33,565 nucleotides of DNA from Candidatus Thorarchaeota archaeon (lineage in GTDB: Archaea > Asgardarchaeota > Thorarchaeia > Thorarchaeales > Thorarchaeaceae): the NCBI GenBank assembly GCA_046758445.1, contig JBHIAE010000030.1:1-33565 (forward strand), given 5' to 3'. Below, in pieces: positions 18,420 through 22,626 of the stretch; position 1 is the stretch's first letter, and each line of letters begins with the position of its first letter. A program made the position numbers and the translations under genes. The notes beneath the pieces were generated by a model. That model saw nothing but the letters and a program-made list of their open reading frames with translations. It did not search any database and had not been told where the DNA came from.

Positions 18420-19736
18420 TCAGATGACAACACTCTCGATTTCTACTTTCCGTTCCTTCTGACTAAGAGTGTTTGAAGGAATCTTCTTTCCACCATACAA
18501 CTCCGCCTCGGGAAGGCCCCGATACAGTGCGTCAGCAATCCTTGCCATTGCGTCTGCCTTCATAATCCCTGAACCGCTCGCACCTGTGAGCACCAACACT
18601 CCATTCTCCATATACACAAAGGGGATGGCATCAGGACTGTAAGAATAACCTCCGGCCCAGCTGCTCACCGGACGAGCGCCTTCAAAGGCTGGAAAATACT
18701 TGGATAGGACTGGGTAGACACTGTTTTCGTAGTATGAGCTTTCTGGATTTGAATAGTCCTCAGGTTGAATGTAGTCATATCTTCGACCCAGCCTATCTCC
18801 GCACCCTATCCAAAAACCTCGTTCCTGGAGTTGAGGTCTGAAGTAAACGCCTGCAGATGGTAGTATGGTAAATGGGACTGAGTTGAATTCATTGAATCCC
18901 TTTGAGTCGAGAATCTCATGTAGACCCTCTTTTTCTTCTGCATGAACCACATAGATGTGCCGCTTCTTCGCTTTGGTTCGGCTATCCATTCCGATCGGAT
19001 CAAGGAGCTCGTTCGCCCAGGCACCAGTAGCAAGGACAGTCTTTTCAGCCCGAATCATTGCGTCGGAAGTCTTCACTCCTTTCACTTTCTTATTCTGCCA
19101 AACAAAGGGCTCTCCAGGAACATCCAGCTTGGGCTCTGCTTCCAGAAGTAGGCTCTCAACTGTGACTCCAAAGCGCGGTTTCACATTGCTGAGCTTCTTG
19201 AACTCCTCGAGATAATACTCTACGAGTCGGGTGGGATCAAGTGCTCCGCAGTCCCCTCCGAAGAGTCCAAAACTAACTTCTTTCAAGTTCATTAGTTTCG
19301 CCTCCTCATCTCCTGAGAAGTCCACGTTGAGGCCGGGCATCATCTTCTTGAGTTGCTCTTTCGTGAATATCTCGTTGTGAATTCTTGACTCATTCATTCT
19401 GTTGATCCACGTCTTAACGCTCTCACTATTGAACTGAGTATCACTTAGCAGCCAGAGGTAGCCTATCTTCTCGAACATGAGATTGTAGCCGATCTCTTCT
19501 TGTACGTGCTCGAAGTACTTGATTGATGTGTTTGTGAGGATTTGGTTAGTAGACGAGGCAAACATGTTCCTCACAGCTGCAGCGCTCATGGCGGTATTTG
19601 CCTGTCCGGCGGCGGAGAGCCTGTCTAGCAAAAGTATGGTCTTGTCCGGGTTGTTCTTTTGCAGGTAGAATGCAGCGGCAACCCCGATTACACCTGCGCC
19701 GACGACAACAATGTCGAAGGATTCCTCGTCTGACAC
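18420..19736 (-). CDS. FAD-dependent oxidoreductase, DAO/sarcosine oxidase beta/proline dehydrogenase family
   Basis: DIVVVGAGVIG dinucleotide fold, VLATGAWA, WAGGY, SGSGIMKA; GTG 19736 preceded by GGAGG. Confidence 0.9.
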   Translation of the reverse strand: MSDEESFDIVVVGAGVIGVAAAFYLQKNNPDKTILLLDRLSAAGQANTAMSAAAVRNMFASSTNQILTNTSIKYFEHVQEEIGYNLMFEKIGYLWLLSDTQFNSESVKTWINRMNESRIHNEIFTKEQLKKMMPGLNVDFSGDEEAKLMNLKEVSFGLFGGDCGALDPTRLVEYYLEEFKKLSNVKPRFGVTVESLLLEAEPKLDVPGEPFVWQNKKVKGVKTSDAMIRAEKTVLATGAWANELLDPIGMDSRTKAKKRHIYVVHAEEKEGLHEILDSKGFNEFNSVPFTILPSAGVYFRPQLQERGFWIGCGDRLGRRYDYIQPEDYSNPESSYYENSVYPVLSKYFPAFEGARPVSSWAGGYSYSPDAIPFVYMENGVLVLTGASGSGIMKADAMARIADALYRGLPEAELYGGKKIPSNTLSQKERKVEIESVVI

Positions 19737-19821
19737 ATTACAATCCTCCGGAGCGACGACCGCCAAGAATGCAGGCCGCCTAAAACGTTTTACCTTGCAT
19801 CTCATGAATAGAGGACCGTTC

Positions 19822-21048
19822 TCATACCTTGAGAATAACCCGCGGCATCAAACGCGCCACAACGCTGCAGAGCCTCAGTTCCACAGCCTTCCAAAGAACC
19901 TCTTGCCCTCTGTATGTGAACTCCAGTTCACGTGGACTTGAAAAGACCTTCTCAGACTCCTGCCCAGTAGCGTGCTCTGTCACGTAGTATCTGGTCCCTG
20001 TTTCTGTTTCCATTACTCTCTTGATGCCCAACATGCTTGGGAACTTGTATCCTCCGCCGTGGGGGAGAATATTGGCATTGAGGAGCCTATCCTTGACATC
20101 ATACTTCTCTGACCGTTTTGTGAATCCCAGATGCTCAATTGAATCCTCCTCGAGATTCGCATTTCCTGTGGCAAGATACGCGGGAAGGTCTGATCTCAGA
20201 GTGATGGGCAGAATCCTGTTCCCAGCAGTCTTCGTATCCTGACATCCGAGTATGTGCTCGTTCATGTTGATGAGTCCCTGATGGATTGGATTGGAAATCT
20301 CAATGAAGTCATCGAACAACAGCTCTGCCGCTCTTCTTCGTTTCTTCTTGCTCAATTCGCATGCGAAGTCGTTCAGGCCAAGGTACCGCGAAGCATTGTC
20401 ATCTGTCAAGATTCGAACAGGTCCATAGGGCGTATTGACTTCTTCCGCCATTTCACTGAGTACGTTGCTCTTGTGGGAATATAGACCAAAGCCGAACCTA
20501 CTGTCGTTGTCACCTTTCAGCTCAGGAACGGAACCATGAACAATGAAGACATATTCGCAATCGAAATCTTCTGATAGAGGCCGCACCTCATAGATGTCGA
20601 TAAAATGGTTGCCAGTATGGAAATCCCATTCGATACGGATGTCATCCAGCACTTCCTCCCTACTTAGGACAGCATTAACATTCCCAAGGAGTTCATCCAT
20701 TGACGGTGCTTCCTCGAGTCCTCCTACCAGCATTCCACATGCATTCGGCATTGAGTCAAGTATGATGAGGTTCTCATTGCCGTCCCCCCATGATAGTTTC
20801 CCGCCATAACCAAAACCGCTCTCCCATCTTCTCACATTGCGCGTTATTGTGGCATCGGGTGCACCGATGAAAGTGGCCGATGGATCCAAACCAAGATTGT
20901 GCTGTACGTGGTGAATCTTGGCCAAGCCGTACTTCATGTTGGCTCTGCACAGCGAGTCAGCTGCATCCTGTAGACCCATTGAGAAGAGATGGCGTGAGGC
21001 TCGTTTCAGTTTCTCTTAGTTGGTCATTGATCCATAGTTGTCGGTCAA
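19822..21048 (-). CDS. Divergent RtcB-fold (RNA ligase-like) metalloprotein; in-frame TAA at codon 11 if the TTG 21048 start is used (intact ORF from ATG 20979)
   Basis: APD, NACGM, GNHF, VHGS, IHQG, PHGGG occur in the order of the RtcB active-site motifs; TTG 21048 overlaps the upstream gene's TGA. Confidence 0.7.
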
Positions 21049-21710
21049 GCCTCCACCCCATCGGATACCAGCCCCTCTTTCTCAAAGATGTGCTCTATGG
21101 ACAACATTCTCGAAGACAGACGGTCCTCCAGAACGAACACGAAGTCCATCAACTCTTGATGTAAGTCATCGCCTAGCTCACGACTATACTCAAAGTTAAG
21201 CTTGTCATAGTCATCCTATCGCTTATCCATGTACTTGGTCAATATGTGCTCCAAACTACCTGTCTTACCAACGAAACCTCTCATGAGCCCCATCAGGCCC
21301 AACCTGTCCAGCGTATCAGAGTCGAAGACCACTCTCTCCTCTGGGGTCTCGGGAGGTATCATTGATGTTGGTGTGTGGCGTATCACAACACGGCATATGG
21401 AGTCGCGGAGGGCCCCCTCTATGTTGAGACCATCCAGATATTCTTCCGTCAACGTGCCTCCGAAGAGTCCGTGAATGTCAGAGAATACTCGATTTGTCTT
21501 TCCAATGTCATGCATCAAGGCGCCGGCAATGCAGACAAACGGATCGACCTTTTCCTGGATATTCTTAGCGATTTGAATGGCATATCTGCATACAGTCAGG
21601 ACATGAGAGTAGTCGTGGCTATCACTTTCGGCATGAGCAGTCCTTACAAAGTCCTGCATGGTCAGAAGTTTCCCCAGTTCTTGCTCTGTTAGTTGACGTG
21701 AGAAGACCAT
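21045..21710 (-). CDS. HD-domain phosphohydrolase (YedJ-like) interrupted by an in-frame TAG at 21218-21216
   Basis: HDYSH, HDIG, RH, DSDTLD motifs; reading continues in frame past the TAG (DDYDKLNFEYSRELG...) to TGA 21047-21045. Confidence 0.82.
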
Positions 21711-21861: not shown

Positions 21862-22626
21862 ATGGCTATGGAAAAAAAAGACCACGATGACCTAGAGATG
21901 ACACTCCTGGTTGGTGCTACTGCAACGAAGCAGTATGCGGTAGGAGTGGTACTCGCTGCTGTTTACGGTGTTAGTGCACTGATTCCTATCAGTGCGTTTC
22001 TTGGAGCTGCTGGGCCGCTAGCTCAGCTTACATTGACTATCTGCATCGCCCCGCTATTCGGGATCTTGCTGGGTCCAACAAGGGGGTTCGTCTTTGGGCT
22101 CATTGGGGGAATCATCACCGCTTTTCTGCCGGGAGTTTCACTCATTGTGCCGACCGTTATTATTGGCCCGGCAATATCAGGTCTTCTTACAGGGTTATGT
22201 CTTGAGCCCTATACGAGAATAGGGTCGACTCGGATACCAGGTCCTATTCTGACTTCCATCTATCTTGCGGGAATCATAGTGCTGTACCTGATTCCAAACT
22301 TCGAAGCCTGGTGGTTCATGGTATACTATGTACTAGCAGCAATTGTTGCAGTTACATTGCAGTTTGAACCATTCAGATTCGATCCATCAAAACAGGGCTA
22401 CAAGAGATTCTTGCAGCTCATTCCACTGGCGCTGGTGGGTACAATCACTGACTTCTCAATGATGACAATGGGCGCTGTGTACATACTCAATCTCCCGGCT
22501 GCTGCATTTGGCTTCGCCATCTTCCCATTCATGCTTGTGGAGAGGAGTGCTGCAACGGCCGTTAGTGCAGTAGTTGCGGTGATAGTCCTGTCCACCTTCA
22601 AGGACTTGTTTCCTACGTCAGACTAG
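21862..22626 (+). CDS. Multi-pass membrane protein, ECF transporter S-component-like
   Basis: APLFGILLGPTRG..GLIGG pattern typical of S-components; ~7 TM helices. Confidence 0.6.
   Translation: MAMEKKDHDDLEMTLLVGATATKQYAVGVVLAAVYGVSALIPISAFLGAAGPLAQLTLTICIAPLFGILLGPTRGFVFGLIGGIITAFLPGVSLIVPTVIIGPAISGLLTGLCLEPYTRIGSTRIPGPILTSIYLAGIIVLYLIPNFEAWWFMVYYVLAAIVAVTLQFEPFRFDPSKQGYKRFLQLIPLALVGTITDFSMMTMGAVYILNLPAAAFGFAIFPFMLVERSAATAVSAVVAVIVLSTFKDLFPTSD

Follow-up and report, generated by a model that had tools for sequence, protein, structure and literature searches.

A divergent RtcB-fold protein family linked to an HD-domain phosphohydrolase, with a stop-bearing copy in a Thorarchaeota genome

The stretch of Candidatus Thorarchaeota DNA analyzed here (33,565 nt; the window) encodes a protein that has the fold of RtcB, is homologous to it, and is distinct from the housekeeping tRNA ligase of the same genome. 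The best overall explanation, which we hold with evenly balanced confidence, is an enzyme of the RtcB superfamily that would keep RtcB chemistry, is paired with an HD-domain phosphohydrolase, leans toward small-molecule substrates and bears stop codons in this genome. To our knowledge, RtcB is the sole enzyme type that joins a 3'-phosphate to a 5'-hydroxyl via His-GMP, and the characterized members that we know of all act on RNA or DNA. The family described here, undetected by every annotation library tried, would add to the RtcB fold a second branch that is strongly conserved and in which the second metal site is rebuilt, and would show the extent to which RtcB chemistry can be re-used.

An RtcB fold outside the RtcB family models

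The gene is as follows.

19822 to 20979, minus strand: open part of the RtcB-like gene, 385 aa, ATG start, stop codon counted in.

An earlier reading made from the sequence alone (the sequence-only reading) had proposed a highly divergent RtcB-fold enzyme on the basis of six motifs. All six were found on the minus strand in the order claimed, collinear within the 385-aa ORF and with their codons verified: APDAT (residues 40-44), MPNACGM (77-83), TGNHFID (122-128), VHGS (147-150), IHQG (232-235) and LPHGGG (305-310). The predicted structure (pLDDT 96.1, pTM 0.93) matches RtcB structures alone, at Z of about 22. VIA-align superposed model residues 1-385 on ten RtcB entries with Z 19.4-22.9 (rmsd 2.9-3.3 A, 289-304 residues aligned), and the best fold other than RtcB reached only Z 5.4; Foldseek matched RtcB at E 7.7e-10 with a probability of 1.00. 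Profile comparisons agree with the structure. When the family profile was searched against all PDB sequences, RtcB chains occupied ranks 1-4 (E 0.0026-0.017), in alignments that cover the NHF motif, the next His, HGxG and the C-terminus of RtcB. Comparison with a profile of 25 Asgard RtcBs by hhalign gave E 5e-5 over 331 collinear columns in local mode (the global mode alignment is meaningless). Foldseek, which the sequence-only reading had named as a check, VIA-align and hhalign each return an RtcB-like result, and the resemblance is far above chance level. A single-sequence PDB search returned FapF at E 0.7, and its matches are attributable to chance only.

Scanning the protein against Pfam identified no family at E up to 10, PF01139 included, and there was no match in NCBIfam, PADLOC or PHROGs. 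The protein falls below the PF01139 gathering threshold; the canonical rtcB of the source genome, encoded on contig 6, scores 590 bits to PF01139. A canonical rtcB was present in all 31 sampled Asgard genomes. The proposal of a distinct, divergent subfamily is supported: the fold is that of RtcB, yet PF01139 is not matched, and a separate canonical rtcB is encoded. It had also been suggested that automated annotation could easily leave the gene as hypothetical, and homologues are named 'hypothetical protein' in every source. The family comprises more than 1000 clusters from Asgard and other archaea and from sediment bacteria, with archaeal and bacterial members about 50% identical, and was found in 83 of 201 sampled Asgard genomes. 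A literature search returned no description of it, which is weak evidence of absence given incomplete coverage.

Compared with the RtcB reference set (PF01139/COG1690; P. horikoshii PH1602, 1UC2/4DWQ; T. thermophilus, 2EPG; human RTCB, 7P3B/8ODO; E. coli RtcB), the family shares the fold and the order of the motifs (bridging Cys, three His ligands, Asn-His-Phe, HGxG, Tyr and Lys). Identity to RtcB is only 12-16%, and the proteins are shorter (385-410 aa vs 480-500 aa): the first 40 residues of RtcB are missing, as are about 60 residues ahead of NHF. The family has no Asp95 and carries a conserved Asn two positions ahead of the Cys; HQ stands in place of HN, HGGGY in place of HGAGR, and of HRKGA the Gly alone is left. 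The RtcB-like proteins are acidic, have an HD partner and occur beside a canonical RtcB, whereas RtcB is basic and has Archease or RtcA as its partner.

Active-site residues

Residues were mapped to P. horikoshii RtcB numbering, with metal-ligand and contact roles taken from PMC9745838, and conservation was assessed over 61 diverse members (identity down to 24%). In RtcB, Asn202, His203 and Phe204 provide an M2 ligand and a GTP phosphate contact, and Glu206 contacts guanine (PMC9745838). The candidate counterparts, all on the minus strand, are as follows.

20737 to 20745, minus strand: Asn79-Ala80-Cys81; Cys81 corresponds by alignment to the metal-bridging Cys98 (PMC9745838).
20596 to 20610, minus strand: Asn124-His125-Phe126-Ile-Asp128, corresponding by alignment to Asn202, His203, Phe204 and Glu206.
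20536 to 20538, minus strand: His148, corresponding by alignment to His234 (M1 ligand); invariant in the family.
20278 to 20283, minus strand: His233-Gln234, corresponding by alignment to His329 (M1 ligand) and Asn330 (gamma-phosphate contact).
20059 to 20061, minus strand: His307 of PHGGG, corresponding to the guanylylated His404 (hmmsearch and hhalign); invariant in the family.
19828 to 19830, minus strand: Lys384, corresponding by alignment to Lys480 (guanine O6 contact); Lys or Arg in 47 of 61 members.

The retention of equivalents of Cys98, Asn202/His203, His234, His329 and His404, as claimed in the sequence-only reading, is borne out by the collinear alignment and by conservation: His125, Phe126, His148, His233 and His307 are invariant (61/61), Asn124 occurs in 60 members and Cys81 in 57. 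The M1 ligands Cys98, His234 and His329 appear to have counterparts in Cys81, His148 and His233 (57/61, 61/61 and 61/61). For M2, Cys81 and His125 are kept and the position of Asp95 is taken by Pro78 or Met77, so the ligand set is incomplete. The same reading was right that the DxxC aspartate is replaced, as Asp95 has no counterpart in the alignment. The closest conserved polar residue is Asn79 (Asn in 54 of 61 members, Asp in three), which may replace Asp95. Because this M2 ligand is absent, the GTP-loading step may differ or fail. Tyr356 aligns with the stacking Tyr451 of RtcB. The guanine-contact column at Asp128 is variable (Asp in 20, Asn in 13 and Glu in 10 of the 61 members), so the NTP may not be GTP.

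Two further absences that had been reported also hold: no His follows the PD of the RtcB-like protein where RtcB has PDxH, and the Gly alone survives from HRKGA (hhalign, 61-member conservation). Pro41-Asp42 of APDAT is nearly invariant; Asp42 is a candidate equivalent of Asp65, and hhalign places the PDGH of RtcB seven residues further on (residues 48-51), at low confidence. The collinear alignment and the 3.0 A superposition of the model suggest that the Cys and His residues share one pocket.

In-frame stops in this copy

The upstream end of the gene and its HD-domain neighbor are as follows.

20980 to 21048, minus strand: remnant of a conserved N-terminal extension (24 residues), with a TTG start at 21046-21048 that overlaps the TGA of the HD gene.
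21016 to 21018, minus strand: in-frame TAA; GAA (Glu) in the 90%-identical relative L005.
21216 to 21710, minus strand: open part of the HD-domain phosphohydrolase gene, 164 aa, ending at a TAG at 21216-21218 (Lys in relatives).
21045 to 21215, minus strand: continuation of the HD gene past the TAG; 56 conserved codons remain, a TGA lies at 21045-21047, and intact orthologues have a homologous C-terminus.

The gene had been drawn by the sequence-only reading as 19822-21048. This is the full-length gene as it occurs in relatives, from the TTG start, but here the frame is broken by the TAA, so the open frame begins at the ATG at 20979. Given the two nonsense codons, the RtcB-like copy is either N-terminally truncated, with a restart at Met25, or becoming a pseudogene. 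Since relatives have neither stop codon, the pair may be decaying in this genome; both stops could also be assembly errors. Three features had gone unremarked in the sequence-only reading: the TAA within its span, the stop-bearing HD neighbor, and the conserved Asn79 as a possible substitute for Asp95.

That the window holds a non-functional pseudogene pair, from a module that is being lost as in most relatives, is a serious possibility that we place somewhat short of even. The TAA and the TAG sit where L005 has Glu and Lys, intact copies exist in the same-genus genomes G167 and G149, and the RtcB-like gene survives in only seven of the 43 genomes from the same archaeal family. Among full-length RtcB-like matches in the 201 Asgard genomes, in-frame stops occur in the window copy and in one other (G092). 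Unique amino-acid changes number 17 in the window lineage and eight in L005, a difference that is not significant in a relative-rate test. Pyrrolysine read-through of the TAG has no support, as no pylS or pylB was found above the cut-off in this 92.7%-complete genome, and the TAA would be beyond its reach in any case. Against a pseudogene pair, the 385-codon frame is intact with all conserved catalytic residues present, close relatives also carry Met at the restart position (so that re-initiation is possible), the shortened HD product retains every metal ligand, and substitution errors can arise in metagenome assembly.

HD partner, gene context and candidate reactions

The HD partner matches PF01966 at 42.8 bits (cut-off 22), and its metal ligands His35, His70-Asp71, His83, His115 and Asp133 show no variation among 29 orthologues. 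It forms the sole neighbor cluster present in more than eight of the 83 RtcB-like loci, occurring in 33. In 29 of the 72 loci with enough flanking sequence the two genes are immediately adjacent; the HD gene is co-directional with the RtcB-like gene, on either side of it, with gaps of tens of bases. Of 15 Asgard genomes with an orthologous HD (at least 259 bits), 14 encode the RtcB-like protein. The partner is not obligatory: in the Lokiarchaeia-like family f8, the enzyme is found in 38 of 40 genomes without an orthologous HD. A complex prediction for one RtcB-like and HD pair (L003; score 0.00, mark 0.32) speaks for neither outcome. Nearest to the HD partner are stand-alone HD phosphohydrolases of the YedJ/YpgQ type (PDB 2PQ7, 3GW7, 5DQV; PRK10119), with which it shares a single HD domain, a length of about 210-225 aa and H..HD..H..H..D ligands. 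The similarity is weak (PRK10119, 38 bits vs a cut-off of 286; PDB E 1.6e-10), and the partner forms its own orthologous group, linked to the RtcB-like gene.

Several clues bear on the substrate. The window protein has a pI of 5.25 and a net charge of -16, compared with 9.07 and +9 for the RtcB of the same genome, and the median pI is 6.3 for the family and 8.7 for RtcB, net charge being a crude guide to RNA binding. An exhaustive search of representatives identified one member fused to an APH-type kinase, within a cluster of radical-SAM, aminotransferase, SDR and HAD genes; a word-based search for longer, fused forms returned none. One distant member lies in a tight operon of glycosyltransferase, RtcB-like, inositol-1-phosphate synthase and GDPD genes. 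Adjacency of the synthase is confined to this locus (L112), so it is not a general neighbor: it lies 2.9 kb away on the opposite strand in L017, 7.5 kb from the RtcB-like gene in G102, and at a distance in four further genomes. A c-di-AMP riboswitch precedes the RtcB-like gene in 3 of 36 bacterial loci, which does not make it a general feature, and none was found in the window. These small-molecule clues each come from a single locus or a small minority, mostly from members 30-37% identical to the window protein.

No single clue is decisive. Taken together, the acidic protein, the kinase fusion, the inositol-phosphate synthase/GDPD operon and the c-di-AMP riboswitches make a phosphorylated small molecule a more likely substrate than RNA, and the family probably acts on something other than tRNA. 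The different substrate suggested by the sequence-only reading would be compatible with the acidity of the protein, with its HD partner and with the settings in which distant members occur.

We predict that Cys81, His148 and His233 bind a transition metal, with His125 at the remodeled second site, and that the bound metal positions an NTP, probably GTP. His307 would attack the NTP to form a covalent His-NMP, and the substrate would receive the NMP on a terminal phosphate monoester; RNA is a less likely substrate than a small molecule such as a nucleotide, a sugar phosphate or a polyol phosphate. The NDP-linked product may then remain, or attack by a hydroxyl may yield a phosphodiester. The HD phosphohydrolase, which accompanies the enzyme in about 40% of loci, would either generate that terminal phosphate or take it away.

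A more specific form of this scheme, which we regard as possible and hold only tentatively, is recruitment to metabolism: the GMP- or NMP-loaded enzyme would activate inositol-1-phosphate, glycerol phosphate or a sugar phosphate to give a phosphodiester or NDP-linked product, the HD protein would trim, and this polyol-phosphate route would be switched on at low c-di-AMP. The CDP-alcohol route to polyol phosphodiesters uses inositol-1-phosphate cytidylyltransferase, DIPP synthase and a phosphatase. Its logic may be analogous, in that transfer of an NMP to a phosphomonoester is followed by displacement of the NMP by a hydroxyl, which yields a phosphodiester, and by a final phosphatase step, but its enzymes have folds unrelated to RtcB and form no covalent enzyme-NMP intermediate; the analogy is drawn from the one inositol-phosphate synthase/GDPD operon and the c-di-AMP riboswitches. 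If the substrate is a metabolite, the family would be a new enzyme class in phosphodiester or nucleotide-sugar-like biosynthesis, and metabolic recruitment, if true, would give sediment archaea and bacteria a new way of making polyol-phosphate solutes or head groups.

Somewhat doubtful, in our judgment, is a specialized nucleic-acid end-joining or repair ligase, in which ends are healed by the HD protein, through phosphate trimming or the opening of 2',3'-cyclic phosphates, and the RtcB-like protein seals 3'-phosphate to 5'-OH on one specific RNA or DNA. Healing of RNA ends is also within the repertoire of HD domains, which makes the partner just as compatible with an RNA role. All functionally characterized homologues are RNA or DNA 3'-phosphate ligases, the metal and nucleophile residues are kept, those of the guanine pocket may be, and the identity between archaeal and bacterial members is as expected with a universal macromolecular substrate. 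This arrangement would parallel RtcA-RtcB and also RtcB2-PrfH, a second RtcB-type enzyme with a special task and a fixed partner gene (PMC9223846, PMC9304027). RtcB2 is, however, an ordinary PF01139 member that acts on 16S rRNA with a release-factor-like partner (PMC9223846, PMC9304027), whereas the present family lies outside PF01139 and is partnered by a phosphohydrolase. The acidity of the protein argues against a ligase of this kind, as do the missing counterparts of the RtcB N-terminus and of the residues between the Cys and NHF strands, and the kinase-fusion, inositol-phosphate and riboswitch contexts point away from it. No RNA-repair neighbor (RtcA, Archease, Ro, PrfH or kinase-phosphatase) recurs among the 83 loci.

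Retention of the His nucleophile and NTP pocket, with loss of the RtcB segments thought to hold the polynucleotide, would also suit a nucleotidyl transferase that halts after the first or second step and labels itself, a protein or a metabolite, with the HD protein as eraser. Such a transferase would serve in signaling or modification and perform no ligation. HD and HIT proteins both act on nucleotide adducts, and a HIT gene lies next door in seven Hodarchaeota loci, but these belong to one lineage and the gene is on the divergent strand. The RtcB superfamily offers no precedent for such an enzyme and the gene context names no target; we consider it improbable. The family as a whole is experimentally tractable, with a single soluble protein some 400 residues long and a single HD partner.

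A further gene lies close downstream in the window.

18420 to 19805, minus strand: FAD oxidoreductase of the DAO family, 17 nt downstream of the RtcB-like gene.

We considered this gene as a general third member of the system. It is probably outside the conserved module, because adjacency was seen only within the same archaeal family (the window, G027 and G098; 2 of 83 loci). In G167 and G140 it is encoded elsewhere in the genome, and it was not found in G089. Its nearest solved structures are the archaeal 'putative oxidoreductase' entries 3AXB and 3VQR, followed by sarcosine oxidase beta subunits.

The RtcB-like gene and its relationship to RtcB

The RtcB-like protein has no match in Pfam-A (even at an E-value of 10), NCBIfam, PADLOC or PHROGs, and a single-sequence search of the PDB returned chance matches only. 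The gene and its surroundings comprise:

18420-19805, minus strand: DAO-family FAD oxidoreductase, 17 nt downstream of the RtcB-like gene
19822-20979, minus strand: RtcB-like open reading frame, 385 aa, ATG start
21016-21018, minus strand: in-frame TAA in the RtcB-like gene
21216-21218, minus strand: in-frame TAG in the HD gene
21216-21710, minus strand: HD-domain gene (PF01966), upstream of the RtcB-like gene
21862-22626, plus strand: multi-pass membrane protein, 254 aa, divergent from the HD gene, no Pfam match

The six motifs reported by the sequence-only reading (APDAT, MPNACGM, TGNHFID, VHGS, IHQG and LPHGGG) were all found in that order, with codons verified, confirming the observation. 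The start placed at 21048 is the full-length TTG start of relatives, but in the window this frame is interrupted by the TAA. Homologues are 396-411 aa long and share a conserved 24-residue N-terminal extension, which is still present and conserved here, though broken by the stop; in a genome search, the match to the family model spans 19825-21036, with "1 TAA" within.

Four independent tests, using profiles and a structure model, agree on homology to RtcB. A profile of 61 diverse family members placed RtcB chains at ranks 1-4 among all PDB sequences (2EPG, E 0.0026; 1UC2, 4DWR and 7LFQ, about 0.015). This alignment pairs the family NHF with Asn202-His203-Phe204 of RtcB, the next invariant His with His234, HGGG with HGAG, and the C-terminal "..ARL.P..LK" with "..AR.RP..V.K". 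Alignment by hhalign to a profile of 25 Asgard RtcBs, drawn from genomes of the same phylum, gave an E-value of 5e-5 over 331 collinear columns (residues 11-385). The AlphaFold2 model built with the 61-member alignment is very confident (mean pLDDT 96.1, pTM 0.93). In keeping with the RtcB-like fold that had been proposed, all Foldseek matches of the model in the PDB with E below 0.001 are RtcB (best 7.7e-10), and VIA-align superposes model residues 1-385 on ten RtcB entries with Z 19.4-22.9 (rmsd 2.9-3.3 A, 289-304 aligned residues), versus Z 5.4 for the next fold, chlorite dismutase.

Numbering follows P. horikoshii RtcB, by alignment of the window genome's own RtcB to 7LFQ/1UC2. In RtcB, metal M1 is bound by Cys98, His234 and His329, and M2 by Cys98, Asp95 and His203; Asn202 and Asn330 contact the GTP phosphates, Glu206 and Lys480 read guanine, and His404 is the nucleophile (Jacewicz et al., 2022; PMC9745838).

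Table. Active-site residues of the RtcB-like protein (counted from the ATG), RtcB equivalents, and conservation among 61 family members
Cys81; Cys98; 57/61
Asn124; Asn202; 60/61
His125; His203; 61/61
Phe126; Phe204; 61/61
Asp128; Glu206; variable (Asp 20, Asn 13, Glu 10 of 61)
His148; His234; 61/61
His233; His329; 61/61
Gln234; Asn330; Gln 48/61, His 7/61
His307; His404; 61/61
Tyr356; Tyr451; Tyr 54/61, Phe 5/61
Lys384; Lys480; Lys or Arg 47/61

The claimed retention of Cys98, Asn202/His203, His234, His329 and His404 is thus borne out, with all four histidines invariant. Asp95 has no counterpart, because D-I-N-C of RtcB reads P-N-A-C, as had been noted. Asn79, two residues N-terminal of Cys81 (Asn in 54 of the 61 members, Asp in three), is the natural candidate for completing a remodelled second metal site. 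Asp42, within APDAT, is Asp in 60/61 members and plausibly equivalent to Asp65; hhalign sets the RtcB PDGH seven residues C-terminal of this position, at low confidence. HGAGR of RtcB is HGGGY here, and the HRKGA motif is absent, as noted from sequence alone, apart from its Gly (the invariant Gly245). Compared with RtcB, the protein lacks the first ~40 residues and a stretch of ~60 residues between the Cys and NHF strands. Judging from collinearity and the 3.0 A superposition, the metal ligands would converge in one pocket.

As far as sequence and fold reach, the protein would work like RtcB. It lies outside PF01139 on two counts: the family HMM does not match it, and the Asp95 ligand is missing. 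In support of the earlier interpretation, it is best described as a newly recognised, family-level branch of the RtcB superfamily outside PF01139, in which the second metal site is putatively remodelled and the partner is another one, an HD-domain protein. The family is of real interest and its function putative.

The gene is distinct from the housekeeping ligase. A separate canonical rtcB, for which the sequence-only reading had advised a search, is encoded on contig 6 of the same genome (3.25 Mb, 92.7% complete); its PF01139 score is 590 bits, and its alignment with P. horikoshii RtcB (E 1e-185) covers nearly the full length. Canonical rtcB occurs in all 31 Asgard genomes sampled. In two Asgard genomes it lies in an open frame of ~1000 aa (G026:C1:1558351-1561179 and G003:C38:129362-132214) and PF01139 matches in two pieces (model positions 1-50 and 44-426), as would be expected if an intein interrupted rtcB.

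Distribution and the HD partner

We identified 1081 relatives in a 90%-clustered database, all named "hypothetical protein", the fate foreseen for the family under automated annotation. Searching 1.84 billion cluster representatives exhaustively recovered 239 family representatives and no bridge to ordinary RtcB. Asgard carriers are Thor-, Sif-, Hod-, Hermod-, Hel- and Jordarchaeia; other archaeal carriers are Bathyarchaeia, Methanocellales, Halobacteriota, Nitrososphaeria, Korarchaeota-like and Nanoarchaeia genomes. Among the bacteria that carry the gene are Desulfobacteria, Spirochaetota, Planctomycetota, Anaerolineae, Clostridia, Actinomycetes and Aerophobetes, with ~50% identity between archaeal and bacterial members. 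Occurrence is patchy (83/201 Asgard genomes): the gene is found in 7/43 genomes of the window's own family and 38/40 of another, and a third carries two copies per genome. A literature search of incomplete coverage returned no paper describing the family. A second, less closely related group of paralogues (430-448 aa; E 1e-20 to 1e-43 to the family model) is present in several Asgard families (genomes G003, G015, G026, G074, G086, G127 and others), and most genomes of one family, f22, have both types.

Clustering every protein encoded up to three genes away from the target across 83 related loci, we found the HD gene to be the only neighbour in more than eight loci (33 in total). Of the 72 loci with flanks of 900 nt or more on each side, 29 have it immediately next to the RtcB-like gene. 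The two genes are co-directional and tens of bases apart; the HD gene precedes its partner in Asgard archaea and mostly follows it in Spirochaetota and Desulfobacteria. Orthologous HD genes (259 bits or more) occur in 15/201 Asgard genomes, 14 of which also carry the RtcB-like gene. The reverse does not follow: in many carriers the only HD genes are more distant paralogues, and the HD protein is thus a frequent but dispensable partner. Its nearest characterised relatives, by weak scores, are stand-alone HD hydrolases of the YedJ/YpgQ type.

The FAD oxidoreductase resembles sarcosine-oxidase-type amine dehydrogenases (closest solved relatives 3AXB and 3VQR, "putative oxidoreductase", E 3.5e-69). 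It adjoins the RtcB-like gene only in the window's own archaeal family (G027, G098), being elsewhere or not found in other carriers, and we regard it as incidental. Human RTCB is protected by the flavoprotein PYROXD1; PYROXD1 belongs to another class of flavoprotein, and we therefore propose no connection. The 254-aa membrane protein is matched in only 1/83 loci. A 405-aa HIT-domain protein is a divergent neighbour in seven Hodarchaeota loci of one lineage (e.g., L080:4320-5537).

Interrupted genes in this copy

Past the TAG, another 56 conserved codons of the HD gene stay in frame before a TGA at 21045-21047, and this stop overlaps the TTG start of the RtcB-like gene (TTGA). One relative (L005, 90% nucleotide identity) has AAA (Lys) at the TAG site and GAA (Glu) at the TAA site, and both genes are intact in same-genus genomes. 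Among full-length matches in the 201 Asgard genomes, only one other (G092) has an in-frame stop. Recoding by pyrrolysine finds no support: PylS and PylB were not found in the 92.7%-complete genome, and a TAA could not encode this residue anyway.

The two stops are either real nonsense mutations or assembly errors. If real, the module may be in decay, which is consistent with its loss from most of the window's archaeal family, or the genes may yield shortened proteins (164 and 385 aa) in which every catalytic residue is retained. Unique amino-acid changes number 17 in the window lineage versus 8 in L005, a difference that is suggestive, not significant. The window copy may thus be damaged.

Candidate substrates

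The clues to substrate point weakly in one direction. With a pI of 5.25 and a net charge of -16, the protein in the window is acidic, and the RtcB of the same genome is basic (pI 9.07, +9); the family medians are pI 6.3 versus 8.7. One member (P0141, 743 aa, 36% identity) retains all motifs and carries a fused APH-type small-molecule kinase; with two radical-SAM genes, an aminotransferase, an SDR and two HAD hydrolases around it, the locus looks like a small-molecule biosynthetic cluster. A distant member (P0185, 462 aa) is encoded in a tight operon (L112:3-3669) in the order glycosyltransferase, RtcB-like protein, myo-inositol-1-phosphate synthase and glycerophosphodiester phosphodiesterase (GDPD), the first two junctions being overlaps or gaps of 1-4 nt. 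A 625-aa protein without a Pfam match follows the GDPD gene. In three actinobacterial-type loci a c-di-AMP riboswitch (RF00379; 98-106 bits against a gathering score of 38) precedes the RtcB-like gene on its coding strand; none was found in the window or in the other 33 bacterial loci:

L033:5587-5716, coding strand: directly upstream of the RtcB-like gene
L028:4747-4877, coding strand: HEAT-repeat gene intervenes
L023:4762-4892, coding strand: HEAT-repeat gene intervenes

We lean, at somewhat short of even chances, toward a phosphorylated small molecule, as the charge, kinase fusion, inositol-phosphate operon and riboswitches suggest, together with the lack of recurrent RtcA, Archease, Ro/Y-RNA, PrfH or kinase-phosphatase neighbours in the 83 loci; the supporting contexts, however, are single loci. 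RNA or DNA ends seem somewhat less likely as substrate; in their favour, all characterised relatives are polynucleotide ligases and HD domains are able to heal RNA ends. Other acceptors are improbable, and the probability that is left falls to the family not being a nucleotidyl transferase at all.
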